From an uncultured Oscillospiraceae bacterium (GTDB lineage Bacteria > Bacillota > Clostridia > Oscillospirales > Oscillospiraceae), in contig CAYQMY010000001.1 in the NCBI GenBank assembly GCA_964418735.1, forward strand, positions 1 to 36,919: a DNA stretch of 36,919 bases, written 5' to 3'. The notes under the pieces are model-generated. The model made no database searches. It was not told the DNA's origin and saw only the letters and a list, made by a program, of their open reading frames with translations. The translations under genes were made by a program, and so were the position numbers. Numbering within the stretch: the stretch's first letter is position 1; each line of letters opens with the position of its first letter. Positions 3,646 to 28,412 of the stretch are shown here, piece by piece.

Positions 3646-4584
3646 ATGGGAAAGAAAGTATTCGTAGATTTGTCACATCCGTTTAGTGCGGAAATACCGC
3701 GCTGGCCATATTTTGACAAGCCGGTAATTGATAATAACCACACCATGGCAAAGGGCGGAGTTCTGACACAGAAGATTACCTGCACCATGCACACGGGCAC
3801 ACACGCCGATGCTCCCCGTCACGTTATGGAAAAGGAATTCGACGGCAGAAGAGCCCGTTACACCCACGAAATGCCTGTTGACGCTTACACCGGTGATGCC
3901 GTGTGCCTTCCGATAGAGGTTGAGCGCTGGGGACTTATCGGACCGGAGCATCTTGAAGCGGCCTGCAAAAAGGTCGGCATCAAGCCGGAAGAGCTTGAGG
4001 GCATGGTCGTCTGCCTCAACACAGGAATGCACCGCAAGTTTGATGATTCCAAGGAGTACTATCACTATTCCTGCGGAACGGGTGTTGAAGCCGGAAAATG
4101 GTTTGTCAAGCACAAGGTTAAGTGCGTCGCTATGGACAGCCAGGCACTGGATCATCCGCTGCACACCGCGATGGGCAATAACGGAATGACCCGCATGAAC
4201 CTTTTAGGCGCTTCGGGCAAACCCATCACCGAGGAGTACGCAGAGCAGTTTGGCGAAGAGGCTTATGCCGAATTTGATAAAGAGGTCTACATCAAGCTTC
4301 ACGGCAAGGAAGCCTATGACAAGAAGTTCGGAGATTTAGAGGAGCTTGGCTGCTGGGGCACTTGGGAGCCCTGCCATAAGCAGATGCTGGGCCACGGCAT
4401 AGTCGGCGTTGAAAACCTCGGCGGAGATTTGGATAAGGTCTCCGGAAAGCGCTTCCGTTTCTACTGCTTCCCGCTTCGATGGTATCTGGGCGACGGCTCC
4501 ATGGTTCGCTGCGTAGCCGAAATCGACGAGGGCGATATAAATGACGTTCCTGACAGGACCTATACCTACGGCGGAAATATTTAG
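3646..4584 (+). CDS. cyclase-family metal-dependent hydrolase (kynurenine formamidase-like fold); candidate dihydrophloroglucinol cyclohydrolase by context
   Basis: It carries the HTGTHADAPRH metal-binding motif (HxGTHxDxPxH) typical of the putative-cyclase family. A GGAG lies upstream of the ATG. Confidence 0.8.
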   Translation: MGKKVFVDLSHPFSAEIPRWPYFDKPVIDNNHTMAKGGVLTQKITCTMHTGTHADAPRHVMEKEFDGRRARYTHEMPVDAYTGDAVCLPIEVERWGLIGPEHLEAACKKVGIKPEELEGMVVCLNTGMHRKFDDSKEYYHYSCGTGVEAGKWFVKHKVKCVAMDSQALDHPLHTAMGNNGMTRMNLLGASGKPITEEYAEQFGEEAYAEFDKEVYIKLHGKEAYDKKFGDLEELGCWGTWEPCHKQMLGHGIVGVENLGGDLDKVSGKRFRFYCFPLRWYLGDGSMVRCVAEIDEGDINDVPDRTYTYGGNI

Positions 4585-4620: not shown

Positions 4621-5466
4621 ATGGCAGATATTAAAAATAAGAGAATTATAACCGTTGCCACGACGGGAGCTTGGCCAACAAAGGATAACACTCCGAATGT
4701 GCCTATAGAGCCGGCTGAAATTGCCGAGGAAATCTATAATTGCTGGAAAGCTGGCGCGGCGATTGCTCACATCCATTGCAGAGACAACGAAGGAAAGGCT
4801 GCAATGATTTTTGAGAAGTTTGAGGAGACGGTAAAACTTCTGCGTGCCAAAAAGGACTGTGACATAATAATCAACCTCACCACCTCGGGCGGTGTTAACC
4901 TCCTTGAGGAGGACAGAATAAAGCCTTTCTACGAGCTTGTGCCGGATATGGCCTCCTATGACTGCGGAACTATGAACTGGCAGAATGTCACGGTATTCGA
5001 GAACAATCCCAAGTTCCTTGAAAAGCTCGGAACACTTATGCAGGAAAAGGGAGTCAAGCCTGAAATTGAGGTTTTTGATCCCGGTATGATTTACAACGCA
5101 GGATATCTTTTGAAAAAGGGCTTTATTAAAGCGCCGCTCCACTTCCAGTTTTGCATGGGCGTGCCCGGCGGAATCGGAGCTTCGACTAAAAACCTCGTAT
5201 TCATGAAGGACACGATGGAAGCGGTAGCACCCGGCTCCACATGGTCCGCGTTCGGCGTTGGCGCTGGAGCAATGGAAATTCTTTACGCGACTATAGCAAT
5301 GGGCGGTAATATCCGTGTGGGCATGGAGGACAATGTCTATTACAAAAAGGGCGTTTTGGCGGACAGCAACATGCAGTTTGTTTCCCGTGCAAAGCGGATT
5401 ATAGAGGAATTCGGCTGCGAAGCGGCTACGCCCGCCGAAGCCAGAGAAATACTTGGCCTTAAATAA
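4621..5466 (+). CDS. beta-keto acid cleavage enzyme (BKACE/DUF849, Kce family); candidate triacetate acetoacetate-lyase by context
   Basis: The N-terminus ITVATTGAWPTKDNTPNVPIEPAEIAEE, the IAHIHCRD motif (His-x-His zinc ligands) and IRVGMEDN (Glu ligand) are hallmarks of the 3-keto-5-aminohexanoate cleavage enzyme family. An AAAGGAGAA RBS is present. Confidence 0.85.
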   Translation: MADIKNKRIITVATTGAWPTKDNTPNVPIEPAEIAEEIYNCWKAGAAIAHIHCRDNEGKAAMIFEKFEETVKLLRAKKDCDIIINLTTSGGVNLLEEDRIKPFYELVPDMASYDCGTMNWQNVTVFENNPKFLEKLGTLMQEKGVKPEIEVFDPGMIYNAGYLLKKGFIKAPLHFQFCMGVPGGIGASTKNLVFMKDTMEAVAPGSTWSAFGVGAGAMEILYATIAMGGNIRVGMEDNVYYKKGVLADSNMQFVSRAKRIIEEFGCEAATPAEAREILGLK

Positions 5467-5582: not shown

Positions 5583-6773
5583 GTGAAAGAAATATATATA
5601 GTAAACTGCTGCAGAACTGCCGTAGGCAGTTTCGGAGGAAGCTTAAAAGATACGAAGGCAGCGGAATTGGGTGCTGTCGTGATTAAGGAAGTTTTGGAAC
5701 GCAGCGGTGTAAAGGCCGAGCAGGTAGATGAGGTTGTGTTCGGATGTGTGCTTACGGCTGGACAGGGACAGAATGTTGCCCGTCAGGCCGCAATAGGGGC
5801 TGGTCTGCCCGTAGAGGTTCCTGCATTTACGCTGGATATGGTCTGCGGCTCCGGAATGAAAGCTGTCATTGAGGCAGCGAGAGCGATAATCGCGGGAGAT
5901 GCCGATATTGTTGTTGCGGGCGGTACCGAAAACATGTCCGCCGCACCATATGCCGTACCTGCTGCCCGCTGGGGCGCAAGAATGGGTGAGAGCAAAATGG
6001 TTGACACTATGGTCAACGACGCGCTTTGGGATGCTTTCAACAATTACCACATGGGCATTACCGCCGAAAACGTGTGCCAGCAGTGGGGCCTCACGCGTGA
6101 AGAGCTGGATGAGCTTGCACTTTCCTCTCAGGTTAAAGCGGGCGCCGCAAAAGCTGCCGGAAAATTTGAAAATGAAATAGTGCCTGTAGCAATCAAGACG
6201 AAAAAAGGTACATTAAGCTTTGAGGCCGATGAGTACCCGAGAAGCGATACCAGCGCGGAAATGCTTGCAAAGCTAAGGCCCGCTTTTAAAACCGACGGGG
6301 GCAAGGTGACAGCCGGAAACGCCTCCGGAATCAACGACGGAGCAGCGGCTATTCTGGTCGCATCGGAAGAAGCTGTTAAAAAATACGGACTGAAACCAAT
6401 GGCAAAGCTTGTAGGCTGGGGACAGGGCGGAGTAGACCCAAAGATCATGGGAGTCGGGCCGGTGCCTGCGTCGAAAAACGCTCTCAAAAAAGCTGGGCTG
6501 ACGATTTCGGACATCGACCTTGTGGAAGCGAACGAGGCTTTTGCCGCGCAGGCTCTTGCCGTGTCACGGGAACTGGGCTTTGACATGAAAAAGGTCAACG
6601 TAAACGGTGGAGCGATTGCCATAGGTCATCCTGTTGGTGCCTCCGGTGCTCGCATTATTGTTACTCTCCTCCATGAGATGCAGAAGCGGCCGGACGCAAA
6701 GCGCGGACTCGCAACACTTTGTATCGGCGGAGGAATGGGAACAGCGACCGTATTTGAAAAGTGCGGTTCATAA
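5583..6773 (+). CDS. atoB: acetyl-CoA C-acetyltransferase (thiolase II)
   Basis: It has the nucleophile Cys motif [21 protein letters not shown] (His) and CIGGGMG (the second catalytic Cys). The GTG start lies 7 nt after GGAGG. Confidence 0.93.
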
Positions 6774-8253: not shown

Positions 8254-9762
8254 ATGTCTGATAAGGTATATATTGAATCGCAAAACACACTGCCTGTTTA
8301 CGACGAGTGCGACATTCTTGTCGTAGGCGGCGGCTCGGCAGGACATTCGGCGGCAATAGCAGCAGCGCGCGCGGGCTCGAAGAACATCATTCTAATGGAG
8401 CGTTACGGCTACATGGGCGGCGATGTTACGGGCGGCTACGTCATCATGGTGCCGAAGCTCTCATGGTATGGCAAGTCCTTCGTGCGCGGCATTCAGGAGG
8501 AATGGTTCACAAGAATGAATCCTATACCAAACGCTGTTCTGGGACCCGACCTCAGCAAAATCGGCAAGGACGACGACCAGGCGCTTATTGGTACATGGAC
8601 TCGTATCCATGGCTGCGTCAGTGAAAGCGAGCCTAAGCGGCTCGTGCGCGCTGTCTATTATGAGCCGAACCAGCTGAAAATCGAAATGGACAAAATGCTC
8701 CTTGAGCACAAGGATGCTATCCGCGTAATGTGCCACAGCTGGGGCACAAAGCCGATAATGGATGGAAACGAGGTCAAGGGCGTTATCTTTGAAAGCAAGG
8801 AAGGACGCAAGGCTATCTTGGCAAAGACTGTTATCGACGCCACCGGAGACGGCGACATTTTCAAACAGACAGGCGCTCCGTTCTCAACTCTTGCCGACGG
8901 GGAAACACGTTCAAGCACCACGGCTCTCGTATGGCGCATAGGCGGAGTAAACTATGATCTTTTCTATGAATGGCAGAAAGCAAATCCGAATGAATTTACT
9001 GGGCTGCGCCGAAGCTTACCCAAGATCGCGGGCTTCCAATGCGCTCCGCTCCCAAGCGCACAAAACGATATCTGCTGGGTAAACAACTGGCATCCGAATC
9101 GTGACTGCGCAACGATAAAGGACGCAACCGAAACTGAAATGAATACAAGAAATACCATGCGCGACGTGCTGGACTACCTCAAGGAGGTTTGCCCAGTAGC
9201 GTTCAGAAACTCATTCATATATGATATAGCGCCGCAGCTCGGCACACGCGGCAGTTGCCGCCTGAAGGGCGAATACGTTATTACATCAAACGATTTTGCA
9301 TTTGCGACAAAGCACGATGACGTTATCGCTTGGCACTCAACTATATGTATGATAAACGACTGCGCTCCCGTTGAAATTCCTTACCGCTCGCTGCTGCCTC
9401 AGAAGGTTGAAAACCTGCTTGCGGCGGGCCGCCATATCTCCGCTGACAATGTGGCTATTGACTGGGTTAACCTGATACCACAGTGCGTGGGCACCGGCCA
9501 GGCCGCCGGCATTGCTGCTGCAGTAGCCGCAAAGGACGGCGTAAACGTTCGCAATGTGGATATCCGCAAGGTGCAGAACATTCTAATAGATCAGGACGTT
9601 CCGCTGCCCCGAAACGACCGTGTCGACAAGTCCTACACCGAGGTTTGTGAGGCTTATGAATACGGGCTTTATACCGAGCTTGCAAGAAAAGCAAAGGCCG
9701 ATGCCGAGGGACTTAGAGAATATCGCCAATCCAGCATTCCGACTGTTCCCAGTAATCATTAA
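8254..9762 (+). CDS. FAD-dependent oxidoreductase (FAD_oxidored/PF12831-like), substrate unknown
   Basis: It has the N-terminal dinucleotide fold DILVVGGGSAGHSAAIAAARAG ... ERYGYMGG. TAGGAGAAAG precedes the ATG. Confidence 0.75.
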   Translation: MSDKVYIESQNTLPVYDECDILVVGGGSAGHSAAIAAARAGSKNIILMERYGYMGGDVTGGYVIMVPKLSWYGKSFVRGIQEEWFTRMNPIPNAVLGPDLSKIGKDDDQALIGTWTRIHGCVSESEPKRLVRAVYYEPNQLKIEMDKMLLEHKDAIRVMCHSWGTKPIMDGNEVKGVIFESKEGRKAILAKTVIDATGDGDIFKQTGAPFSTLADGETRSSTTALVWRIGGVNYDLFYEWQKANPNEFTGLRRSLPKIAGFQCAPLPSAQNDICWVNNWHPNRDCATIKDATETEMNTRNTMRDVLDYLKEVCPVAFRNSFIYDIAPQLGTRGSCRLKGEYVITSNDFAFATKHDDVIAWHSTICMINDCAPVEIPYRSLLPQKVENLLAAGRHISADNVAIDWVNLIPQCVGTGQAAGIAAAVAAKDGVNVRNVDIRKVQNILIDQDVPLPRNDRVDKSYTEVCEAYEYGLYTELARKAKADAEGLREYRQSSIPTVPSNH

Positions 9763-9805: not shown

Positions 9806-10300
9806 ATGGATTTTGTTATGAACACAGAGGGCGAATACGGCAAGTACATGGTTCAGGAGTTAAAAGCGCCGAAGTTTTCGCCCGGGTTTGAAGAATTCTA
9901 TAATACCTTCGCGAAGAGGGTTCTGTGGGTTGACAGCAATGTTGTTCCGGGCGCATTTCAATTCAGCTCCTCTTGGTATATGAAGGCATCGGATGTACGC
10001 CCCCTGATAAAGCATGACGAGCATTTACATGATGTTGACGAGCTTATCGGCTTTTACGGCTCAAATCCGGAAGATCCGAACGATCTCGGCGGCACAATAG
10101 AGATAGGCATAGGCGGCGAGACGCACCGTATCACGAAAAGCACGCTGATTTTTCTCCCCGCCGGACTTAAGCATTTGCCGCTTTCTATTATAGAGCTACA
10201 TCGCCCCATCTTTCATTTCTCAGTTGTAATGTCCCCGGTTTACAGCACTACTCACACAAATACCGGTGAAACGAGTGTGCTGAACCAGCCACGCGATTAA
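9806..10300 (+). CDS. metal-site cupin-like protein, paralog A (unknown function)
   Basis: It has the HLHDVDE-LIGFYG motif (HxHxxxE cupin motif 1) and FLPAGLKHLP (motif 2 His). It is clearly homologous to the next ORF (GFYGS.P.DP.NLGG ... RPIFHFSVVM). Confidence 0.7.
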   Translation: MDFVMNTEGEYGKYMVQELKAPKFSPGFEEFYNTFAKRVLWVDSNVVPGAFQFSSSWYMKASDVRPLIKHDEHLHDVDELIGFYGSNPEDPNDLGGTIEIGIGGETHRITKSTLIFLPAGLKHLPLSIIELHRPIFHFSVVMSPVYSTTHTNTGETSVLNQPRD

Positions 10301-10499
10301 GAAATATTAACCAAAAGAACCGTTGATTAATTCGACAATCGGCGGATGAGCAGATTAATTTCCTCAATTTCGCAAAAAGCAATGCTGATACATACTGTAT
10401 TCCTGCGTTTTTTTGATCGAACTGATAAATTTCTCTGCATCATCCCTCAATGCGATTTAATCAGCGGTATTTTTATTTTTCGTGAAGGGAAAATTTGTT

Positions 10500-10976
10500 A
10501 TGCCAATCAATACTGACGGTAAGCATGGCAATCTTGTCATGCAGGATTTGATATTGCCCGTAACGCATACAACTCCCGCTGCTACGGAGGCCTATGCGCG
10601 TTTTGGTAAGCGCTTGCATTGGGTCGACGGCAATAATATGCCCGGCGCATTTCAAATGAACACCTCGTGGTGGTATAAGGCAAACCGAGAATCCGTACTA
10701 TCAAATACCGAAAGCCCTGTAGGAAGACCGCATACGCACAGCTATCCCGAAATACTGGGTTTTTACGGCAGCGACCCCGATGACCCGGATAATCTCGGAG
10801 GAGAGGTAGAGCTCTATTTAGACGGAGAAGTGCAAGTTATCACAAAAAGCAGCATGGTTTTTATTCCGCCGAATATGCCGCACTGCCCTTTACTAGTGAA
10901 CCGTGTTGACCGGCCAATATTTCATTTTTCAGTTGTGATGAACAATGAATATACCTTTAGCCGAGATAACGGGTGA
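10500..10976 (+). CDS. metal-site cupin-like protein, paralog B (unknown function)
   Basis: It has PHTHSYPE-ILGFYG (HxHxxxE) and FIPPNMPHCP. I prefer the ATG at 10500, about 9 nt after GAAGGGA, over the GTG at 10482. Confidence 0.7.
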   Translation: MPINTDGKHGNLVMQDLILPVTHTTPAATEAYARFGKRLHWVDGNNMPGAFQMNTSWWYKANRESVLSNTESPVGRPHTHSYPEILGFYGSDPDDPDNLGGEVELYLDGEVQVITKSSMVFIPPNMPHCPLLVNRVDRPIFHFSVVMNNEYTFSRDNG

Positions 10977-11636: not shown

Positions 11637-12931
11637 GTCCGGAGCTTATCGGCCTTCTTGGCATTATTGCACTACTCGTTCTGATGGCACTGAAAATGTG
11701 GGTGGGTGCGGCCCTGACGCTTGTGAGCGTCATAGGTATAATCATCCTCAGAAATTTAGACGTAGCCATGGCTGTTTCAGGGGCGTCGGCGTTTACAAAC
11801 CTGAATACATATACCTTTACTGTTATCCCTATGTTTACCCTTATGGGCATGGTAATTGCTGAAAGTACTATGGGAAAGGACCTTTACGCCGCGGCTTACG
11901 CATGGGTAGGGCGTTTCAGAGGTGGTCTTGCCTCGGCAACTATAGTGGCCTGCGGTGTATTGGGTGCTATATGCGGTTCGACACAGGTGGCCGTGCTCGT
12001 TATGTCCCGTGTTGCAATGCCCGAGATGAAAAAGAACAATTATGAAGAATCGTTGGCAGCCGGTTGCGTTGCCGCAGGAGCGCCGCTCAGCATACTGATA
12101 CCGCCCAGCATGGGGTTCATAATGTACGGCATACTAACGGAAAATTCAATTGGCAAGCTTTTTGCGTCGGGTATTGGTGTCGGCGTACTACAGATGCTCC
12201 TATATATCGTGGTTGTTGTGATCTTGTGCCGTCTAAAGCCGGAGCTTGGACCGCGCGGACCGAAGCTTGAGCTTAAGATAATGCTCAAAACGCTGCTCAA
12301 AATCCTGCCGGTGATGCTCCTCATGCTTCTCGTGCTTGGCGGAATATACTTAGGATTCTTCACCACTACCGAGGCGGGGGCTGTAGGTGCTCTTGGTGCA
12401 ATAGTAATCTCTTTTGCGTTCCGCCAGATAACCGTTAAAAAGTTTAAAAAGGCGCTTAAGGATACCGCTGTGCTCTGCGGAATGGTGTTCTTCCTCGTTG
12501 CCGCTACTTATTTGTTCGTCACCTTTATGAGCCTTAGCCGCGTTCCGATGCTGCTCGCGAAAGTAATTATCGGCATGGCGGTCCCCAAGTGGGTACTGGC
12601 CTGTGCGCTCATAGTTTTATACTTTATTCTTGGCATGTTCCTTCCGGAGGTGCCCATGGTGGCTCTTACCATTCCCGTGTTTTATTCGGCACTGGTTAAA
12701 GTGGGCTTCGACCCAATCTGGCTTGGCGCATTTGTAGTTAAGCTTATGGCTGTCGGCTCCATTTCGCCTCCGGTCGGAATGACTGTGTTCACGATGGCCG
12801 GGGTAAGCGGCATAAAGGTTGAGAAAATATTCAAGGGCGTTCTGCCGTTTCTTGCTGTCGACGTTATAATACTCGCGCTTATGATCATTTTCCCGCAAAT
12901 AGCGACTTTCATCCCCAGCCTGATGAAGTAA
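11633..12931 (+). CDS. dctM: TRAP transporter large permease (DctM-type)
   Basis: It is a 432-aa polytopic membrane protein with DctM-like segments (GGLASATIVACGVLGAICGS, PPSMGFIMYGILTE). It is flanked by Q- and P-type partners. Confidence 0.85.
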   Translation: MSPELIGLLGIIALLVLMALKMWVGAALTLVSVIGIIILRNLDVAMAVSGASAFTNLNTYTFTVIPMFTLMGMVIAESTMGKDLYAAAYAWVGRFRGGLASATIVACGVLGAICGSTQVAVLVMSRVAMPEMKKNNYEESLAAGCVAAGAPLSILIPPSMGFIMYGILTENSIGKLFASGIGVGVLQMLLYIVVVVILCRLKPELGPRGPKLELKIMLKTLLKILPVMLLMLLVLGGIYLGFFTTTEAGAVGALGAIVISFAFRQITVKKFKKALKDTAVLCGMVFFLVAATYLFVTFMSLSRVPMLLAKVIIGMAVPKWVLACALIVLYFILGMFLPEVPMVALTIPVFYSALVKVGFDPIWLGAFVVKLMAVGSISPPVGMTVFTMAGVSGIKVEKIFKGVLPFLAVDVIILALMIIFPQIATFIPSLMK

Positions 12932-15135: not shown

Positions 15136-15765
15136 TTAGGCCTCGTCCTGAGACTCTTTGAAGGGCTTCGCGTAATCGCGCACTTTTGCCTCGTATTTAA
15201 GAGTGTCGAGCTTGCCGAGCTTTTCGAGCTTGCGGTAAATACGCTCCCAGCCGCACTCCATGTCTTTGTTAACTTCGCACTTGCCGTTTTTCGCTCCGCC
15301 GCACTGACCGTTCACGAGGCTCTTTGAGCAGGCTGTTATCGGGCAGATTCCGCCGGTGCTGTTAAGATAGCATTCGCCGCACTGGCCGCAGTCAAACTCT
15401 AGCGGAGTAACGCCCTGGAAGCCCGGAAGCGGGCAGGTGTCACAGCAGGCGACGACTCTTTTGTTCTCGAGAAATGCCGCGACGGTCTGTACGCCGACGC
15501 CGCAGGAAAATACCAGTACCGTGTCAGCAGCTTCGATCTTATCTGCGAACTTTTTGAGCTGGAAACGCAGATTATCGGGATTGCAGATATAGTCTCTGGT
15601 AATTATTTCGGTTACATTTCCGCCTGCGGAAAGCTCCTTTTGAAGCTCTTCGGCCTCATGCTCGGGGAAATATACTTCCTTACAGCCGTGGCAGTTTATG
15701 ATAACGGTTTTTCCCTTTGCCAGAGCTTCGATGGTTTCCTTTGATTTCAGTTGGGTAATGAGCAT
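15136..15765 (-). CDS. metV: MetV (MTHFR C-terminal-like Cys-rich subunit)
   Basis: It has the Cys-rich block CGQCGECYLNSTGGICPITACSKSLVNGQCGGAKNGKCEV characteristic of MetV. Its ATG lies 1 nt after the rnfC2 stop. Confidence 0.85.
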   Translation of the reverse strand: MLITQLKSKETIEALAKGKTVIINCHGCKEVYFPEHEAEELQKELSAGGNVTEIITRDYICNPDNLRFQLKKFADKIEAADTVLVFSCGVGVQTVAAFLENKRVVACCDTCPLPGFQGVTPLEFDCGQCGECYLNSTGGICPITACSKSLVNGQCGGAKNGKCEVNKDMECGWERIYRKLEKLGKLDTLKYEAKVRDYAKPFKESQDEA

Positions 15766-15766
15766 T

Positions 15767-17728
15767 TTATTTACCCTCCCTTATAGCTTTTTTTCCGATT
15801 TTTATCATGGTGACAATCGGAATTTTAGACGAACAAATTGTCTGGCAGCATCCGCACTCGATGCAGTCCATAACGCTCTGGTCCTTAAAGCCCTGCCAGT
15901 TCGAGGTGCCGGCGTACTTGGTGAAGTACAGGGGCTTCAGCTCCATCGGACAAACGTCGGCGCAGCGGCCGCACTTGATGCAGGGATAGGGCTCAGAGGT
16001 GACAGGCTCAACTGCGATGACGCCGTTTGTGCCCTTCATTACGGGAACAGAAAGATCACTGAGCACAAAGCCCATCATCAGACCGCCCATTTTAATGGTT
16101 ACATCGTCAGTAGTTACGCCGCCGCAGTAGTCGACGAGCGCCTTGACGGGAGTACCGATTTTAACAATATAGTTGGCGGGGTTTTTGATTCTCTCGCCGG
16201 TCACGGTTACAACGCGCTCGATAAGCGGCATACCGGTTTTGATGGCGTCGGAAATGGCCTTGACGGTGCTGACGTTGCTAACAACCGCGCCAACATCGGC
16301 GGGCAGTCCGCCGGACGGAACGCTGCGTCCCAAAACCCTCTTGATAAGCATTTTTTCCGCGCCCTGCGGGTACTTGGTTTTAGCTACGACAACCTCGATG
16401 TTGTCTATATCGGCCGTCTTTGCCTGCATAACCTCGATAGCGTCGGGCTTGTTGTCTTCGATTGCGATGATGCCCTTTTCAGCGCCGGAAGCCTTAAGCA
16501 TAGCCTTAAGTCCGTAGATGATGTCATCTGCATACTCGACCATAACGCGGTGGTCGGCGGTGAGAAGCGGCTCGCATTCGCAGCCGTTGAGAAGAACGGT
16601 ATCGACCGGCTTCGGCGGCTTCATCTTGACGGAGGTCGGGAAGCCTGCGCCGCCCATGCCAACGATGCCCTTTTCGCGGACAAGCTCGACGAGCTCATCT
16701 GCAGTCATGGAATCAAGATCTCCGGCGGGCCTTACGGACTCGTGCAGAGTGTTCTTTCCGTCAGACTCGATTACAACGGACATTACGTTTCCGTTTGTGG
16801 CATGAAGTCTCGGCTCAACAGCGAGTACCTTACCGCTGACGCTTGAGTGAATGTTTGCGCTGATAAAGCCCTTGGCCTCACCGATCTTCTGGCCGACCTT
16901 GACGAGGTCTCCGGCGGCAACAATCGGCTCTGCGGGTGCGCCGGCGTGCTGACACATGGGTATAACAACGGTATGTACCTCGGGGAAGACCTTAAGAGAG
17001 AGGTGCTCGCTGTATTCCTTGTGCTCCGAGGGGTGAATTCCGCCGTAGTAACCCTCAAAACGCTTTTCTCGGACAGATTTGACGTATTCGTTGATTAGCT
17101 TGAAGTTTACCTTTGAGTAGTCGCGAACCTGAACCGGCTGATTGAGAAATTCCTGAAGCATACCTTGCTTGTCGAGCTTCTCATAGATCTTCTGCCAGCC
17201 GCAGTCCATGTTCTTGTTGACTTCGCATTTGCCGTTTTTTGCGCCGCCGCACTGACCGTTGATGAGGCTCTTCGAGCAGTCAACAATGGGACAGATGCCG
17301 CCGGTAAGGTTTAAGTAGCACTGGCCGCAGGCGTCGCAGAGCGTTTTTGTCAGTGCCATGCCGTGATTGCCCCTGAAAGCTGTAGAATCGCTGGCAGCAT
17401 AAACAGGCTTTTCTGATAAATCGGCAACCGTCTGTATGCCGAGACCGCAGGAAATAACAAAAATGTTATCTACGCCCTCAGGCAAAACGGACTGAAGCTT
17501 CTTCTCAGTCGTTGTCTTGTTGCACAGAAAATCTACCTTTGCGCAGCCTACGAAAGTTTTGCCCTGCTCCTTGGCAAGCTCCTCAAATTTGTCGCATTCC
17601 GGCTCTTCAAATGTTTCAAGTTCCTTGAAGCATTTGTTGCAGGCTACAACAAAAATGTTTTGCTTATCGGCAAGTAGTGGGGCCAACTCTTCAGCCCTTT
17701 TCAGCTTGAACTTGGTGTAATCTTCCAA
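15767..17728 (-). CDS. rnfC2: RnfC-like NADH-binding iron-sulfur flavoprotein with an N-terminal MetV-like module (RnfC2-type MTHFR subunit)
   Basis: The N-terminal roughly 200 aa are paralogous to MetV (CDACGQCYLNLTGGICPIVDCSKSLINGQCGGAKNGKCEV). The central region has the VGMGGAGFPT motif (RnfC/NuoF-type nucleotide/FMN site). The C-terminus has two ferredoxin motifs, CIKCGRCADVCP and CIECGCCQTICS. A TTG start lies 7 nt after GGGGGG. Confidence 0.8.
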   Translation of the reverse strand: MEDYTKFKLKRAEELAPLLADKQNIFVVACNKCFKELETFEEPECDKFEELAKEQGKTFVGCAKVDFLCNKTTTEKKLQSVLPEGVDNIFVISCGLGIQTVADLSEKPVYAASDSTAFRGNHGMALTKTLCDACGQCYLNLTGGICPIVDCSKSLINGQCGGAKNGKCEVNKNMDCGWQKIYEKLDKQGMLQEFLNQPVQVRDYSKVNFKLINEYVKSVREKRFEGYYGGIHPSEHKEYSEHLSLKVFPEVHTVVIPMCQHAGAPAEPIVAAGDLVKVGQKIGEAKGFISANIHSSVSGKVLAVEPRLHATNGNVMSVVIESDGKNTLHESVRPAGDLDSMTADELVELVREKGIVGMGGAGFPTSVKMKPPKPVDTVLLNGCECEPLLTADHRVMVEYADDIIYGLKAMLKASGAEKGIIAIEDNKPDAIEVMQAKTADIDNIEVVVAKTKYPQGAEKMLIKRVLGRSVPSGGLPADVGAVVSNVSTVKAISDAIKTGMPLIERVVTVTGERIKNPANYIVKIGTPVKALVDYCGGVTTDDVTIKMGGLMMGFVLSDLSVPVMKGTNGVIAVEPVTSEPYPCIKCGRCADVCPMELKPLYFTKYAGTSNWQGFKDQSVMDCIECGCCQTICSSKIPIVTMIKIGKKAIREGK

Positions 17729-20508: not shown

Positions 20509-21744
20509 TTATTTATCCGATTTCCAGACATAAAGCGCGCCGTTTTCGAGCATCGACTCAATCTTATTATCATCGTAGCCGAGCTCCTTTAAAACCTCCG
20601 GGCCGTTTTCACCTATGAGAGGGGCGACCTTCGGCATGGCTTTTTCTATGGAATCGAAGTAGCCGGGCGTGCGGGTTATGCGGCGGACGTTTCCATTAGG
20701 ACACTCAAGGTCGTAGTAGCAGCCCATGGCCTCCGCCTGCGGGTCCTCGAGCATTTCCTGCCAGTTAAAGGCAAGGGCGTGGGGGATATCGCCGTCAACG
20801 AGGATGGTTTTCCACTCAGACCATTTTTTGGTTTTGAAATATGTAAGCAGTATATCGGTAAACTCATGCAGGAAGCCACTCTTGACCATGTCTGCCTGAG
20901 GCCAGTACTTGCCGCAGTCAACGAGGTCCTGCCGTCCGATAGCCTTGCAGAAGTGCTTAAAGCGCTGGTCGTAATCGGGCATTGCTATCTGAACTATACG
21001 GTCGTCGGCTGTGGTATAACCGCCGTTGAGCGGGTTCGTGTTGTTGTACATGCCGATGGGGAAGGTGCGGGCGTAGCCGTCGTACTGGGAGGCCATCAGC
21101 ATGATGGAGTGGTTCCATATAGCGTTCTCATATAGGCTTGCGACGACGAGATCACCTTTTCCGGTTTTCTGAGAGCGGAGATAAGCGGTCAGAACGTTGA
21201 GAGCAAGCACAAGACCCACGTTGTTGTCTCCGATGCCGGGAATAGCGGGATGCGGAGGCCCTCCGGCGCGGCGGTTGACATGTATGTATCCGCCGCGGCT
21301 TAAAAAGGCAGTCATGTCGTAGCCCGGCAGATCCTTGTCCGGCCCCTTTACTCCGTAGCCGGTGCACATGCCGTAGATAAGCTTAGGAAAGCGCTCCTTT
21401 ATAGAATTATAGTCAAGCCCTGCGCGCATTAAAGCTTGCTCGCGCCAGTTTGTGATGAGAATGTCCGCCGTAGCTAGGAGCTTTAAAAACGCTTCCTTGC
21501 CCTCGGGATTTTTCATATCGAGGGAAATGCAGCGCTTGTTTCCGTTGAGGTATTCCCAGGTGGTATTCTCCAGCATATCCTGCGGACGCCCCTCGTTTAC
21601 GCCGGTATAGCGGAGAGGGTCACCCTGTGCGCTTTCGATAATTATTACGTCTGCGCCGTGGTCGGCAAAGTATCTTGCGGCGGCGGGGGCCGCTACGAAA
21701 TTGGCGAGCTGTATTACTCTGACTCCTGATAAGGCCAGGTCCAT
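20509..21744 (-). CDS. family III CoA-transferase (CaiB/BaiF family)
   Basis: It has the N-terminus LSGVRVIQLANFVAAPAAARYFADHGADVIIIESAQGDPLR, typical of CaiB/BaiF/Frc-type transferases. A GAGGAGG RBS is present. Confidence 0.85.
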   Translation of the reverse strand: MDLALSGVRVIQLANFVAAPAAARYFADHGADVIIIESAQGDPLRYTGVNEGRPQDMLENTTWEYLNGNKRCISLDMKNPEGKEAFLKLLATADILITNWREQALMRAGLDYNSIKERFPKLIYGMCTGYGVKGPDKDLPGYDMTAFLSRGGYIHVNRRAGGPPHPAIPGIGDNNVGLVLALNVLTAYLRSQKTGKGDLVVASLYENAIWNHSIMLMASQYDGYARTFPIGMYNNTNPLNGGYTTADDRIVQIAMPDYDQRFKHFCKAIGRQDLVDCGKYWPQADMVKSGFLHEFTDILLTYFKTKKWSEWKTILVDGDIPHALAFNWQEMLEDPQAEAMGCYYDLECPNGNVRRITRTPGYFDSIEKAMPKVAPLIGENGPEVLKELGYDDNKIESMLENGALYVWKSDK

Positions 21745-23514: not shown

Positions 23515-24603
23515 ATGTTAAATGCTCTGCAAATCAGGGACGAGTATTCTATGCGAGATGCCGAAGTCATGGAAGACAGGCTTATACTGTTGATCTTAAA
23601 GAAAATGAACTGCGTTTATGCGGGAAGGCTTCTAAGACTAGTCGAAGCGCTTACTTTACCTGTAATATTGTTTGTGCTTGCCGCAGTCACATTTTATGTC
23701 TTAAAAAACAAGCTCAGCCTTTATATTCTGCTGGCTCCGCTCGGGATTTTGTCGGTGTATATTCCTAGTGCTATTGGCAGTATGAAAACGCGTAGACAAA
23801 ATTCGGGGATAAGACACGATATCAAAAGGTGCGGTGAGCATTTTTTGATTGCTCAGGCAACCTGCATCGGTAAGAACGAGCAGACCTTTTTCTCTGGGAA
23901 GAAGCTTTGCAGCCTCAAGGTCGGCCTGCGCGGCGGGCAAAGAATTGAGAGCATTCCGATATTTGAGCCGTATTACAGGGGGATCAAGGTCGGCAGTGAA
24001 GTTGCGCTGATTATTTCTTCGAGCGAGGGGGCGGAGGTGCTGTTCGCTATCCCTAAGTATGTGCTGAAGCCGCACACCAAAACAGCAAAGCTGGAAGCGG
24101 ATAAGACGGCGCCGATTTCTGAAGAGCTTCTGCGTCCCTTGAGTGAAGAGGACAGAAAAATGGCGCTGGAATTCGGGGCTTATAGGAATAGGCTGAGAGT
24201 CATACACTACGGAAGAGCTTATATTATCTGCTCGCTCCTCTCGGCAGCCTTTTTTGTGACAGCGGTCATACTTAATAGTGTATATATAAATCTTTCAATC
24301 GTCATTTTGTGCTGCATCGCCGCTGCGGTAGTGATGTATTTTGCGGAGTGGAGGCAGTATAAGAAAATGGTTTTGGAAAAATGGGATAAGCTGAGTTGTC
24401 TTGACGGAAAGGTGTCAACCAAGACGGAAGATTCTGAAAACAAGGGAAAATACATCGAGATAGAAGACCTCGGCGGAAAGAGGATTTTTCGCTCAACCTC
24501 GCAGGAGGATTATATAATCTTCGAAAAAGGCAGCCCCGTCCTGCTTATTTATAAGGACGGAAAGGATAAACCGATAATTTGCATGAAAAGTCTGCCGGCA
24601 TAA
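23515..24603 (+). CDS. hypothetical membrane protein (two TM hairpins, each followed by a soluble module)
   Basis: The ATG at 23515 lies 8 nt after GGAGGG. Hydrophobic pairs occur near residues 40-95 and 235-290. I recognised no family. Confidence 0.6.
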   Translation: MLNALQIRDEYSMRDAEVMEDRLILLILKKMNCVYAGRLLRLVEALTLPVILFVLAAVTFYVLKNKLSLYILLAPLGILSVYIPSAIGSMKTRRQNSGIRHDIKRCGEHFLIAQATCIGKNEQTFFSGKKLCSLKVGLRGGQRIESIPIFEPYYRGIKVGSEVALIISSSEGAEVLFAIPKYVLKPHTKTAKLEADKTAPISEELLRPLSEEDRKMALEFGAYRNRLRVIHYGRAYIICSLLSAAFFVTAVILNSVYINLSIVILCCIAAAVVMYFAEWRQYKKMVLEKWDKLSCLDGKVSTKTEDSENKGKYIEIEDLGGKRIFRSTSQEDYIIFEKGSPVLLIYKDGKDKPIICMKSLPA

Positions 24604-24635
24604 GCCGCTATTTGTTTAGCAGAAAGGAAATACTT

Positions 24636-25475
24636 ATGAAAGAGTGCAACTGGGAAACAGCAATAAACAGCAGACGTTCGACCAGAAGCTTTGAGACGCG
24701 GGGGCTTGATCGTGATACTATCGAAGCCCTAAAGCGCAGAGTTGCCGAGCTTGAGGTTCCGTTCGAGCATGCTGTTGAGGTGAAGTTTTTTAAGGCCGCT
24801 CCGACGAAGAAGCTCTATATGGCTTTCGATTCGCCTGCGGACAATATGGCGTTCATGTCCGAAACCGACTATGTATCAATATCCAAGGCCGGCTTTGTTG
24901 GCGAGCTTGCCGTCCTGCTTGCAACGGAGCTTGGCATTTCAACCTGCTGGTACGGGCACTATAATATGGAGGAAATGGAAAGGCTGCTCCCCCATCTTGG
25001 CGAGCACGCTAAGGAAAAGCAGCCTAAATGGGGCTACGGAAAGGATGTCGTCGAAGGGCGGCGTGTAATTGCTGTTTCGCCGCTTGGCTATTGGAGCAAA
25101 AAGGGGCTGAGGCTTTTTGACCGCATACAGGAAAATGCGGTAAGCTTTAAGCGCAAGGCCATAGATGAGCTTTTGCTGGGAGATGTTCGTGAATCACATC
25201 TATCTGAGCCGATAACATTTGCTTTAGATCTTGCCAGAAAAGCTCCGTCAGCCGCGAACTTTCAGTTCTGGCGCTTCAAGGTTGAGCCTGACCAGAAGAC
25301 TATATATGTTTCCATGCCGGAGGGCTACAAGCACCCGAAGTGGGAGCACCCGAATGTGGATATCGGCATAACGGCGTGTCAATTGTGGCTTGGATTATTG
25401 ATTAAGGGCATTGAATGTGAAATAGATATTGAAGAAGTCAAAGGCTGCGCCGTTTGGAAATTCAGTTTAAAGTAA
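24636..25475 (+). CDS. nitroreductase-family-like protein (atypically long)
   Basis: It has the N-terminal INSRRSTRSF motif typical of the nitroreductase fold. The ATG at 24636 follows GAAAGGAAA. The ORF-track start at 24579 overlaps the upstream gene. Confidence 0.55.
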   Translation: MKECNWETAINSRRSTRSFETRGLDRDTIEALKRRVAELEVPFEHAVEVKFFKAAPTKKLYMAFDSPADNMAFMSETDYVSISKAGFVGELAVLLATELGISTCWYGHYNMEEMERLLPHLGEHAKEKQPKWGYGKDVVEGRRVIAVSPLGYWSKKGLRLFDRIQENAVSFKRKAIDELLLGDVRESHLSEPITFALDLARKAPSAANFQFWRFKVEPDQKTIYVSMPEGYKHPKWEHPNVDIGITACQLWLGLLIKGIECEIDIEEVKGCAVWKFSLK

Positions 25476-25494
25476 TAATCTCTGCATATAAAAA

Positions 25495-25527
25495 CAGGGC
25501 TTCGAGAATTTCTCGAAGCCCTGTTTA
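25495..25527 (+). terminator. rho-independent terminator after the nitroreductase-like gene
   Basis: A perfect 13-bp stem, cagggcttcgaga / tctcgaagccctg, is followed by TTT. Confidence 0.7.
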
Positions 25528-25537
25528 GCGTGCAAAA

Positions 25538-25672
25538 CTCCCTCGCAGGGATATTTGAATCATTTTTCCGGGAATTCACTTCTCGGAAAAATACCACAGC
25601 CCGCGCAAATCGTGCGCGACCGGGGGTATCGCGGCCAAGGCCGCGTATCTAGGGGGTATTGGATACCCCCTG
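25538..25672. repeat. left copy of an approximately 135-bp multi-hairpin repeat (inverted relative to 26939-27075)
   Basis: The reverse complement of 25597-25656 is identical to 26956-27015 (60/60). The flanks align with scattered mismatches. The unit is a chain of five short hairpins. Confidence 0.9.
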
Positions 25673-25682
25673 GAGATTGTTC

Positions 25683-26846
25683 TTATGTTGAGCAAATCAG
25701 TATGATTTCAGATACCCTTCCGTAAGCTATGCTAAAAACAATAGAGCACCAGGGTGAGGCTGTTCCGGGATAGTACGCATAGCCGAAATCCACTCCGGAT
25801 GAGGGGTCAAACTCATATTGCTGAAGCGCGTCTCCGTAGACCGCAATAAGATCCTGCCTCGTGCTTCCGCAGCGGATTCCGTTTTTAAGTTTGTAGTCCG
25901 TGGAGGTTACATATATGCCGAAGACGTAGATTCCGCCCGCAGAATAGTCGGCGCGCAGATAGTTGAGCCTTCCGAAACCCTGATAATCGGAGTAATAGCT
26001 GCCGGTGCCTTGAGCAAAGTCGCTTCTTTCACTTACCATGGGCAGATACTTAAATAATTCCAGTACATATTCGGACTGATAGCCGAGGCCAATGCCTCTC
26101 CCATAAAGGTCATAAAGGACATACTCGGGGCCGTGGTACTTGATATCAGTGTTGGTTGGCAGTATTTCAAAACGCCTGCGATATTCCGGCAGGGCAAGTC
26201 TCATAATAATTGCGGCAGACTCGGCGCGGGATATCATGTCGTAGGGACGAAAATTAAGCGTTCCTGCGTCCCCGCTGAGGACTCCGGCCCGATAAAGCGT
26301 AAATATGCTCTCGGAGTTCGGTGTGTTTATGGATACGCCCGGTATAGAATTAATAGTGTTAATCTGCCAAAGCTCCCCGAAGGGAAGTGTGTTTTCGAAT
26401 ATGTAAGCAACATCGGCTCTCGAAGCATAGGCGTCGTAATTTGAGAAATGATCTGCGGCAATTATGCCGTTTCTGATTGCATAGTCAACATAGTCGATAT
26501 ACCAGGGCTGTTTAGAGATATCAAACGAAGCTCCGTAATCGGAATATATGCTGTGCACCACGGCGGCCATTTTTATAGCCTCGCAGAGTCTAAGCCCATC
26601 CTCCGGATAAAAAGCGCCGGTTTCCGTGCCGTTCATTATTCCAAGCTCATAGGCTGTCTTTATGACCGCCTGACTCTTCATGCCATACCACTCTGATTCG
26701 TTTACATCCCAAAACCTGCCTTCCGTGTACGTATAGCGGAGAGTGAAATTATACATTGACGGGCGTCCCACGCTGCCCTCGGCTGTCGCGGAGAAGCCCG
26801 TCAAAATTATGGTGAGGGCTAATAATAGGGTAACTATTTTTTTCAC
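25683..26846 (-). CDS. secreted SLH-domain (S-layer homology) protein
   Basis: It has a signal peptide MKKIVTLLLALTIILTGFSATAEG. SLH-like repeats are present (FWDVNESEWYG...AYELGIMNGTETGAFYPEDGL, and RPYDMISRAESAAIIMRLA). A GTG start follows AAAGGA. Confidence 0.7.
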   Translation of the reverse strand: MKKIVTLLLALTIILTGFSATAEGSVGRPSMYNFTLRYTYTEGRFWDVNESEWYGMKSQAVIKTAYELGIMNGTETGAFYPEDGLRLCEAIKMAAVVHSIYSDYGASFDISKQPWYIDYVDYAIRNGIIAADHFSNYDAYASRADVAYIFENTLPFGELWQINTINSIPGVSINTPNSESIFTLYRAGVLSGDAGTLNFRPYDMISRAESAAIIMRLALPEYRRRFEILPTNTDIKYHGPEYVLYDLYGRGIGLGYQSEYVLELFKYLPMVSERSDFAQGTGSYYSDYQGFGRLNYLRADYSAGGIYVFGIYVTSTDYKLKNGIRCGSTRQDLIAVYGDALQQYEFDPSSGVDFGYAYYPGTASPWCSIVFSIAYGRVSEIILICST

Positions 26847-26938
26847 TGATTTATCCTTTCTGTAGGGTATAGTTTACATAAATACTATTACAGAAAGGAC
26901 GCCGCTTCAAATGCAATTACTGGTATCGTGCTATGCTT

Positions 26939-27075
26939 CTAGGGGGAATCCAATTCCCCCTAGATACGCGGCCTTGGCCGCGATACCCCCGGTCGCGCAC
27001 GATTTGCGCGGGCTGAGGAATTTTTCCGAGAAGTAAATTCTCGGAAAAATACATTTAATTTTCCCTGCGAGGGAG
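26939..27075. repeat. right copy of the approximately 135-bp multi-hairpin repeat
   Basis: See the left copy. The hairpin order is reversed relative to 25538-25672, so the pair is inverted. Confidence 0.9.
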
Positions 27076-27137
27076 TATTTTGACAGTTAAAGGCGTCCGG
27101 GGTGTTCCCGAACGCCTTTTTATATATGATATATATA

Positions 27138-28412
27138 TCAGACCAGCGCGCCGAGCAGGAGGATTTCCTCGTTTTGGCGGTATATAGTCGGGAACTGTGA
27201 GATGGGTAGGGGGTTTACGCCTCTGCCAACCTCAACTGTGAAGCCGGGGCGCCTGAAGTCCTGAATGAACCAATCCTTGTACCCTGCGTAAGAGGCCTCG
27301 CCCGGATTTTCCGAAACGATATAACCGCTCACCCTTGAAAACAATCTCGCGATGTCGAGAGACTCGGGGGGCTGAAGGTCTAGGAACGTATAGAAAATGA
27401 CCTCGCCCTGGGTATGGTAAGCGATTACCAGCCTAAAATTGCGCCCTCTCGTGAAATCGTACATTCCTGCGGATTCAGGCTCTGTGAGGGGGGCCTCGCC
27501 GCCGTAATCCCTCGGCGCGGGGCCTGTGATGCCCTGCTCTAATTCAAGATCCTTTTCTCTTTGCCACTCGGCGGGATAATTAAGGTTAATATCCACACCC
27601 CGGATATTTGCCTTCCAAACTCTCGGGAGAGGAAGGCCGGTTTTGTTAAGGCGCGCCGCCTGTATGTATGCGGGATCGGAGTAGTTTGGCCAGTAATTTA
27701 CCAGATCGACGCCGTCGGGATTGACCATAGGCACTATGTAGATGCTTGATTTGTTAAAGATATCTCTGACGCTGTAGTTTCCAAGACGGGTTCCGGTGGA
27801 ATAGGCTTTGGAGAAGTTTTCGATGAATTTCATAAGCAAGGTTGTCGTTATCCACTCGTTAGCGTGATGTGAGGCGTTGTACGAAACCTCGTTCGGACCG
27901 TTTCCAAGCCTTATAACGAAAAGGCTTTTGCCCATTACGCTCTTTTTTTCAAGTGCTGTTACCTCTAAAAATGGGTATCTTACTTTTAGGGCACGAATCT
28001 GTCTTTCCATTATTTCGTAGGTGTAATCTATATCAGTAAAGACGACATCAATTCCGTAAGGAACTATAATTTGCTGTCCTATACGCAGAGAATTGGGATC
28101 GATTCCGGGGTTCGCGGTCTGTATCGCGGAGACGGTAGTATAAAACTTCCTTGCTATGCTGTAAAGTGTGTCGCCAGATCGGATAGTATAGGTGGCGTAG
28201 CCGAGCAGGAGCCTTTCGAATTCAGCCCAAGTCAAGGGGCCTACAACTCCGTCGGGAGTAAGCCCGTTGTCGCTTTGAAAATCAATTACAGCCTGACGGG
28301 TTCTTGGGCCAAAGCTGCCGTCAACCGCGCCGGGGTCGTAGCCTATCCGGTTCAAAAGACTCTGGACTAATTTCACGTTGGGGCCCGTCGAGCCCAATGT
28401 TAATATTTCCAT
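27138..28412 (-). CDS. gamma-D-glutamyl-meso-diaminopimelate-type peptidase (PG_binding_1 + LysM + M14 carboxypeptidase domains)
   Basis: It has the peptidoglycan-binding repeat (GSTGPNVKLVQSLLNRIGYDPGAVDGSFGPRTRQAVIDFQ), a LysM domain (YTIRSGDTLYSIARKFYTTVSAIQTANP) and the M14 zinc motif HANEWIT. Confidence 0.8.
   Translation of the reverse strand: MEILTLGSTGPNVKLVQSLLNRIGYDPGAVDGSFGPRTRQAVIDFQSDNGLTPDGVVGPLTWAEFERLLLGYATYTIRSGDTLYSIARKFYTTVSAIQTANPGIDPNSLRIGQQIIVPYGIDVVFTDIDYTYEIMERQIRALKVRYPFLEVTALEKKSVMGKSLFVIRLGNGPNEVSYNASHHANEWITTTLLMKFIENFSKAYSTGTRLGNYSVRDIFNKSSIYIVPMVNPDGVDLVNYWPNYSDPAYIQAARLNKTGLPLPRVWKANIRGVDINLNYPAEWQREKDLELEQGITGPAPRDYGGEAPLTEPESAGMYDFTRGRNFRLVIAYHTQGEVIFYTFLDLQPPESLDIARLFSRVSGYIVSENPGEASYAGYKDWFIQDFRRPGFTVEVGRGVNPLPISQFPTIYRQNEEILLLGALV

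Follow-up and report, generated by a model that had tools for sequence, protein, structure and literature searches.

Two inverted copies of a five-hairpin repeat around an SLH-domain gene: probable members of a dispersed family of small structured elements

Why should a single gene be enclosed by two inverted copies of the same string of hairpins? The question is raised by a stretch of DNA of 36,919 nucleotides (nt) from an uncultured Oscillospiraceae bacterium (NCBI GenBank assembly GCA_964418735.1, contig CAYQMY010000001.1, positions 1 to 36,919 of the forward strand; hereafter the window), in which a gene for an SLH-domain protein lies between two arms, each a row of five short hairpins. 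A preliminary description of the locus offered three readings of this arrangement: a REP- or MITE-like structured repeat that flanks the gene by chance, a pair of arms allowing recombinational inversion of the enclosed cassette, and two arms transcribed together that pair as a 5'/3' mRNA duplex.

The arms are probably two separate copies of an element of about 155 bp that is built of five palindromes, contains no open reading frame (ORF) and forms part of a dispersed family that appears to be mobile. That the two arms enclose the SLH gene is most likely incidental. The first of the three readings is thereby supported, as the unit occurs at other intergenic sites, is missing from the corresponding sites of relatives and is represented in the window by two sub-lineages. 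The element was previously uncatalogued, and its copies constitute a new family of small dispersed structured repeats.

The two arms and the resident gene between them

The left copy (25526-25682) is read from hairpin 5 to hairpin 1 on the minus strand and the right copy (26934-27088) in the same hairpin order on the plus strand, with scores of 176 and 193 bits, respectively, for the covariance model R1. When aligned with MAFFT the two are about 92% identical. In forward-strand coordinates, the hairpins of the left copy lie at 25539-25551 (hairpin 1), 25562-25592 (hairpin 2), 25602-25618 (hairpin 3), 25630-25645 (hairpin 4) and 25648-25674 (hairpin 5), and those of the right copy at 26938-26964 (hairpin 5), 26967-26982 (hairpin 4), 26994-27010 (hairpin 3), 27020-27050 (hairpin 2) and 27062-27074 (hairpin 1), followed by the tail TTTTGACAGT (27078-27087). 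A core of 60 nt (25597-25656 and 26956-27015) is an exact reverse complement in the two arms at 60 of 60 positions on direct comparison, as the preliminary description had it, and there is no longer exact match between them. A repeat search returned the arms as 25562-25674 and 26938-27050 (113 nt, 94% complementary) with a further outer extension at 25534-25567 and 27046-27079 (34 nt), and no copy beyond these two was found in the whole window. The inverted copies are thus real, but the unit, earlier put at about 135 bp, is somewhat longer, about 155 nt, with boundaries set by comparison with a third and further copies.

The five hairpins per copy are also as first described: fold z-scores of the arms range from -4.5 to -7.3, and none of 200 shuffles folds equally well. 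The paired change in the last hairpin, by which a T/A pair of one arm is replaced by A/T in the other so that the stem is kept, is real and is seen in the alignment. The element has a G+C content of about 50-60%. The outer 69 nt of the right arm, together with an identical gene for an M14 carboxypeptidase, are also carried by an independent Logan contig (L001, from SRR8925824), so that this part is not an assembly artefact. Positions 1744-1812 of L001 correspond to 27020-27088 of the window; the contig stops within hairpin 2, short of the core. The palindromic element is a practical source of contig breaks in short-read assemblies, as the end of L001 illustrates.

The gene between the arms (25683-26846, minus strand) encodes a protein of 387 amino acids (aa) from a GTG start. 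It gives a Pfam SLH match (E 7e-11) and has a signal-peptide-like N-terminus, in agreement with its earlier description as a secreted SLH-domain protein. The left copy fills the space between the SLH stop codon (25683-25685) and a native bidirectional terminator hairpin (25492-25526; arms of 17 nt, 100% complementary), where native means present in relatives without the unit. This terminator is common to the SLH gene and to a nitroreductase-family gene on the plus strand, and adjoins the hairpin-1 end of the left copy. The right copy lies between the native 5' region of the SLH gene (26847-26933, minus strand; ribosome-binding site and presumed promoter), which is thus inside the right arm, and the native terminator hairpin of the M14 carboxypeptidase gene (27089-27121), which adjoins the hairpin-1 end of the right copy. 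The distances first given, about 10 bp after the stop and about 93 bp before the start, are therefore close to the mark but need correction: the left copy follows the stop codon directly and the right one ends about 88 nt upstream of the GTG.

A comparison that bears on the role of the arms is with NCBI assembly GCA_029268065.1 (L005), which holds the closest homologue of the SLH protein (81% amino-acid identity) in the same neighbourhood of S11 carboxypeptidase, M14 peptidase and SLH genes. Window and L005 share 80-84% nucleotide identity in most blocks, and the SLH block, at 80.2%, is like its flanks. Compared with the window, L005 is shorter by about 145 nt at the left site and by about 151 nt at the right, keeps hairpins homologous to both native terminators together with the 87-nt region upstream of the SLH start, and has the SLH gene in the same orientation relative to the M14 gene. 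Since the gene sits at the orthologous site without arms and has diverged like its neighbours, it is not the cargo of a cassette. As far as synteny allows one to judge, the SLH gene is shown to be resident and vertically inherited, and the arms to be insertions relative to L005.

The same data bear on two functional interpretations of the pair. A single gene between long inverted repeats recalls a composite transposon or mobile insertion cassette, with the arms as ends and the SLH gene as cargo. However, on the sequences compared here this is contradicted by synteny, since the gene is orthologously placed in the arm-less L005 with a divergence equal to that of its neighbours, and the flanks of the two arms belong to different sub-lineages (see below). 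SLH homologues at about 50% identity in three further loci (L008-L010) have no arms or other copies of the element and are not syntenic. A composite transposon is therefore barely credible. The mRNA duplex of about 135 bp, which would be cut by RNase III or would stabilise the SLH transcript, can appeal to the complementarity of the arms and to the weak U-tract of the M14 terminator (GCCTTTAAC), which makes read-through into the right arm conceivable. The right arm, however, is upstream of the native 5' region (87 nt), a stretch that the arm-less relative has conserved, and it is downstream of the terminator hairpin of M14, so that it could be co-transcribed with the SLH gene only by read-through from M14; moreover, each arm folds stably alone and the other members of the family are single copies. 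We regard such a duplex as highly improbable.

Further copies, empty sites and the origin of the pair

A six-frame protein search with both arms gave one match, the FtsH protein P0053, whose ORF runs into a copy of the element. The contig in question (L007, ENA ERZ21878172), which FtsH similarities place near Oscillospiraceae, carries one full and three partial copies. Copy A (4002-4156) is of full length, 87-90% identical to the arms, and occupies the ftsH-ychF spacer; copy B (9236-9308) comprises hairpins 2 and 1 and comes after a gene for a cell-wall hydrolase; copy C (5304-5352) is made up of hairpin 5 and a variant hairpin 4 and follows ychF; copy D (11795-11892) is eroded. In four relatives of L007 (L011, L012-14 and L015) the ftsH-ychF spacer measures 57-66 nt and contains one native hairpin and no copy A. 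L011, which is syntenic with L007 (77-89% nucleotide identity in aligned blocks), lacks copies B and C as well. Searches with nhmmer and with two covariance models (R1, and R2 for the 5' half of the unit) found no copy in the relatives of L007, in L005 or in the three loci with SLH homologues.

L011, L012-14 and L015 have one native terminator hairpin between ftsH and ychF (GGGCGGG..CCCGCCC). In L007 the whole hairpin occurs on both sides (3952-3974 and 4158-4181) of an insertion of about 183 nt that contains copy A. The duplicated hairpin amounts to 23 bp, and its duplication fits no standard mechanism of small elements.

Some further features of L007 and L005 were noted in passing. When set against L011, with its conserved ...GAAACTAAAGAGGATTAA end, the ftsH ORF of L007 (2045-4126) is shifted in frame towards its 3' end, so that it passes its real stop and enters the repeat; to this the copy owes its detection in a protein search. 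The shift is probably an indel error of long reads. An outward-facing TTGACA (-35 consensus) occurs at the hairpin-1 end of the right arm (27081-27086) and of copy A (4148-4153), where TATACC follows after 17 nt upstream of ychF, and is not conserved in the left arm or in more distant copies. L007 also has a T-box leader (6151-6370; 85 bits against a gathering score of 93) upstream of a threonyl-tRNA synthetase gene, as expected for a Firmicute. In L005, two terminator-like hairpins between convergent genes (20783-20919) gave a weak covariance-model match of 24 bits, and the first of them (GGCGGGCGGAATTCAATTCCGCCCGCC) has a loop-proximal GGAATxCAATTCC as in hairpin 5 of the right arm; they are ordinary terminator-like hairpins and probably a chance match rather than a copy.

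With L007 at hand, the relationship between the two arms can be examined. In the leader, hairpin 5 and the linker between hairpins 2 and 1, the left arm matches copies C and B, and the right arm matches copy A. At informative sites outside the core, copy A is matched by the right arm at 14 and by the left arm at 3, and the two arms share a state at 1, whereas within the core the two arms agree at seven of seven (Fisher p = 4.7e-5 by sites, and 0.045 when clustered changes are taken as single events). Because their flanks are of different sub-lineages, the arms arrived independently and not by a local inverted duplication. The identical core of 60 nt is best read as a tract of gene conversion between the arms, or as the result of stronger constraint on that part.

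It is this mosaic, suggestive of exchange between the arms, together with the inverted layout of 155-bp arms and their perfect 60-bp core, that speaks for an inversion device, in which recombination would flip the SLH cassette either as phase variation or by occasional RecA-mediated events. Against it stand the dispersed nature of the family, whose other known sites are single-copy, and the unchanged orientation of the gene relative to M14 in L005. In addition, the native upstream region lies inside the arms, so that a flip would bring no obvious change of expression. Pfam scans of the main ORFs of the window returned metabolic, transport and cell-wall genes only, with no recombinase or transposase. 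With the repeat itself and a possible conversion tract as its only support and no recombinase nearby, the inversion proposed earlier is very unlikely.

If the arms came independently, their inverted layout would follow from the sites they occupy. All four copies in which the hairpin-1 end is kept (both arms and copies A and B) adjoin a native hairpin, and since the terminators that flank the SLH gene face outward, one and the same polarity at each of them yields an inverted pair. Among nine assessable copies, eight are co-directional with adjacent genes (hand count; one-sided binomial about 0.02), as would be expected either from co-transcription or from a preference for one replication strand. 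At about three of five copies both flanks can be read as TA or TAA, which in AT-rich gene ends is weak evidence.

More distant members of the family were found by scanning a collection of viral contigs with degenerate patterns made from blocks common to the close copies. Four diverged full copies were obtained (L016, L017, L019 and L032; 56-64 bits with R1, E 1e-13 to 1e-16). In L016 the copy comes immediately after a rolling-circle Rep gene (PF23343, phrog_3584); the contig resembles a plasmid or an integrative and conjugative element and also has PcfJ, resolvase and RelBE-like genes. The other three are on contigs of tailed phages: between a terminase gene with a small ORF and the portal gene in L017, in the head module and with an extra insert of about 110 nt in L019, and in the tail module before a tail-fibre-like gene in L032. 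All keep the order of the hairpins and the blocks TAGGGGG.AT..AT.CCCCCTA.ATACG and CGATACCCCCGG.CGCGC, and the stems of hairpins 2, 4 and 1 are swapped for unrelated but complementary sequences. In two more viral contigs (L034 111-180 and L035 5255-5316) a hairpin-5-like palindrome is followed by ATACG and a second hairpin (13-14 bits); these may be modules of hairpins 5 and 4 like copy C, or else chance or fragment matches.

The unit is thus present at other, unrelated intergenic sites (in L007 and in the phage and plasmid-like contigs), and no copy was matched to an Rfam family. There was no Rfam match at the gathering score in the window, nothing relevant at E up to 10 in 25400-27200 and nothing relevant at E up to 0.01 in L007, L016, L017, L019 and L032. 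GenBank phages and PLSDB plasmids contained no match to the window copy or to the copies of L016 and L017, and the searchable literature had nothing relevant on the conserved linker motifs. The element is common to an Oscillospiraceae-like chromosomal lineage and to phage and plasmid-like contigs, and is without a counterpart in these three databases.

DNA or RNA as the conserved form

Because the covariance model fitted the alignment of the seven full copies to the structure, the following counts are biased towards pairing, which must be held against the reading based on them: pairing holds in 95.3% of cells, both partners have changed in 23 of 41 pairs (44 cells), and the covariation score reaches 0.472, as compared with 0.130 for shuffles (none of 500 reaches the observed value) and at most 0.127 for slid partners. 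The hairpins of the distant copies are plain by eye. The selection on structure suggested from the two arms was thus a correct reading, greatly strengthened by the distant copies.

The kind of pairs involved is informative as to the molecule concerned. Over the seven copies, 260 of 275 cells are Watson-Crick pairs, 2 are G-U, 7 are A-C and 6 are other combinations. Helices of functional RNAs usually contain a sizeable share of G-U pairs and of single-sided intermediates. The near absence of both suggests selection or regeneration of DNA palindromes, either as hairpins of single-stranded DNA or as cruciforms, and the pair types thus point to hairpins that would be selected as DNA and not as RNA.

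The alternative is that the unit is a functional RNA motif (a cis-acting stabiliser of 3' ends, a processing or antitermination signal, or a small RNA derived from 3' untranslated regions, UTRs) and that copies are kept for this reason. It would account for the strong covariation of a conserved structure, for the low fold z-scores and for the placement of the eight co-directional copies directly after a stop codon or between co-directional genes. The pair types speak against it, as only two cells are G-U and the changes are nearly all from one Watson-Crick pair to another, and so do the mismatches on the gene-sense strand, which are A-C. Furthermore, Rfam has no match and the unit is not preceded by a conserved promoter; the genes at its flanks have unrelated functions, and their orthologues in relatives do without the element; and the right arm is not sense to any adjacent transcript. 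An RNA motif is accordingly unlikely.

Several observations weigh against a mobile element conserved as DNA as well. Covariation within the close copies by themselves is restricted to hairpin 5 and falls short of significance (its level is attained by 36 of 500 shuffles), and the seven A-C mismatches on the gene-sense strand fit neither RNA there nor a simple model of single-stranded DNA. The unit has no terminal inverted repeats (TIRs) at its ends, and no consistent target duplication is seen across copies. The family amounts to seven full and three partial copies, with no complete genome among the sequences that hold them. Exact scans with 20-mers of genome contigs and with 21-mers of metagenome contigs gave only chance matches in unrelated high-GC contigs, so that the family is rare or too diverged for such scans. 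Finally, it is from presence and absence alone that we infer transposition.

Known repeats and origins, a possible mechanism and the wider window

In its organisation the element resembles the BOX/RUP/SPRITE, REP/BIME and bcr1 repeats, and it fits the definition neither of a miniature transposable element with inverted repeats (MITE) nor of a repetitive extragenic palindrome (REP). Like a MITE, it is about 155 nt long, has no ORF, exists in several copies and varies in presence between relatives (with empty sites in L005 and L011-L015), but it lacks the TIRs by which MITEs are defined. No transposase was found in about 37 kb and about 14 kb of carrier genomes. A REP is a single imperfect palindrome of 20-40 nt with a GTAG or CGTC tag (PMC3733652), whereas the present unit has five different palindromes in fixed order and no GTAG or CGTC discernible by eye at the feet of its hairpins. 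A RAYT gene was likewise missing from the loci examined.

Close parallels from a Gram-positive bacterium are the BOX, RUP and SPRITE repeats of Streptococcus pneumoniae (PMC3049150), which are also shorter than 200 bp, ORF-less, strongly folded and intergenic, are enriched at the 3' ends of genes with an orientation that mirrors the coding strand, and differ in their insertions between relatives. BOX is moreover modular (boxA, boxB and boxC), as the clean partial copies B and C of L007 are. However, BOX and RUP have TIRs that pair with each other, and here five independent local palindromes stand in a row; the pneumococcal repeats are AT-rich and have no sequence similarity to the element; and the element, unlike them, also occurs in phage and plasmid-like contigs of other organisms. 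Rfam returned no match to boxA, boxB or boxC, and the likeness is organisational only.

REP and BIME sequences, associated with RAYT (Y1) proteins (PMC3733652, PMC3184786), are extragenic palindromes that lie, like the element, downstream of genes and in the spacers of convergent or co-directional pairs. BIMEs are organised as mosaics, the presumed substrate of a trans-acting HUH/Y1 enzyme is the hairpin in single-stranded DNA, and effects of REPs on mRNA 3' ends are known. REPs differ in their high copy number and single tagged palindrome, as against five untagged palindromes with conserved linkers. The bcr1 repeat of the Bacillus cereus group (PMC3184786) is a Firmicute repeat of about 155 bp that is patchy among close relatives, is transcribed and shows compensatory changes; it differs from the element in the 5-bp direct repeats at its flanks and in a two-armed cruciform-like RNA structure, in place of which we find DNA-type pairs and no consistent target duplication. 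The small Correia (NEMIS) and ERIC repeats (PMC3049150; PMC3184786), co-transcribed duplexes of which are cut by RNase III or RNase E, are the model behind the earlier idea of an mRNA duplex. In those cases the duplex forms within one element between its own TIRs (with a TA duplication in Correia), and here it would span a whole gene and need read-through. Two other groups of candidates were set aside. A diversity-generating retroelement or retron was rejected as there is no reverse transcriptase in the window, no adenine specificity in the way the arms differ and no overlap of the repeats with coding sequence; a group II intron fragment, an integron attC site and a mimic of the type I-C CRISPR repeat (hairpin 3) are less likely candidates, as their shapes or key motifs do not appear to fit.

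A different comparison is suggested by the replicons on which the distant copies reside. Single-strand origins of the ssoA type (PMC5703833, PMC4598088) are about 160 nt long, act as folded single-stranded DNA in one orientation only, have short conserved motifs amid variable stems and are shuffled between replicons. The unit could accordingly be a single-strand initiation site of a new sso-like type, or another HUH substrate, that belongs to phages, plasmids or integrative elements and whose chromosomal copies are strays. Its length of about 155 nt, the DNA-type conservation of its pairs, the orientation dependence of sso function (PMC5703833), the copy directly after the Rep gene of L016 and the three copies on tailed-phage contigs are in keeping with this. 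On the other side, only that one copy among seven has a Rep gene as its neighbour, and the motifs that define ssoA, RSB (TTATGCCGAGAAAATTT) and CS-6 (TAGCGT) (PMC4598088), are not conserved in the family. CCGAGAA in a T/A-rich context in hairpin 2 (25562-25592 and 27020-27050) resembles RSB TTATGCCGAGAAAATTT and is confined to the copies of the window and of L007; a hexamer like CS-6 is seen at just two copies, on different strands (TAGCGT at 25526-25531 in the left arm); and neither motif is present in L016, L017 or L019. Single-strand origins are not known as multi-copy chromosomal repeats, nor are they known to multiply in housekeeping intergenic regions or to occur as modular fragments. 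Taken together, a single-strand origin is quite improbable.

For the dispersed element that we favour, a mechanism can be outlined. What speaks for mobility is that copies are present in some relatives and absent from others, come as modular fragments and occur in unrelated phage modules, and the conserved linkers together with the DNA-type covariation speak for recognition of the folded DNA by a trans-acting protein; the element is probably mobilised in trans. The hairpins would then be the feature recognised by an enzyme encoded elsewhere (a hairpin-recognising transposase or nuclease, or a replication protein) that copies or moves the element. Each of the outward-facing terminators around the SLH gene would have taken a copy with equal polarity relative to its hairpin, and the inverted layout would be a by-product. 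Once in place, the pair would be open to homologous exchange, of which the core may be a conversion tract, and the left copy would give the 3' UTR of the SLH transcript five extra stem-loops that may alter the stability of its 3' end, as REP and BOX do.

It is possible, and we advance it tentatively, that the family represents a new class of small mobile elements active as single-stranded DNA. Its members would carry the linkers TAGGGGG..CCCCCTA.ATACG and CGATACCCCCGG in a row of hairpins of fixed order, would be recognised in trans by a rolling-circle/HUH-type or other hairpin-binding enzyme encoded by phages or plasmids, would insert at the feet of terminator hairpins, sometimes with duplication of the target hairpin (as at copy A), and would be common to chromosomes and mobile elements of Clostridia. 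Inverted pairs such as the one around the SLH gene would in that case be hot spots for conversion and inversion. Should the mobilising enzyme be found, the element could reveal a new mechanism of hairpin-directed, terminator-targeting insertion. For the SLH gene itself the consequences would be small, namely the five stem-loops in its 3' UTR and a substrate for inversion or gene conversion.

The genes on either side of the arms are a nitroreductase-family gene (TM1586_NiRdase; 24579-25475, plus strand), the true start of which is probably the ATG at 24636, and the M14 carboxypeptidase gene (27138-28412, minus strand), whose product also has PG_binding_1 and LysM domains. About 700 bp of the former (24727-25429) are missing from L005, where about 66 bp are left at the site and an ORF of 67 aa is called on the C-terminal remnant. 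Protein look-ups gave no record for the SLH protein or for the product of the last gene of the window, and led from the M14 protein to a contig of 1.8 kb only. Two other repeats occur in the window. A direct repeat of 183 nt with 76% identity (15209-15391 and 17157-17339) lies in adjacent genes (15136-15765 and 15767-17728) that are DUF5981-containing in L005; the pair is also found there (17633 and 19581), which makes it a paralogous domain of long standing rather than a mobile repeat. Lastly, two tandem ORFs of 164 aa (9806-10300 and 10482-10976) share a stretch of 63 nt at 73% identity (9926-9988 and 10620-10682) and are likely paralogues, the second with a weak cupin match.

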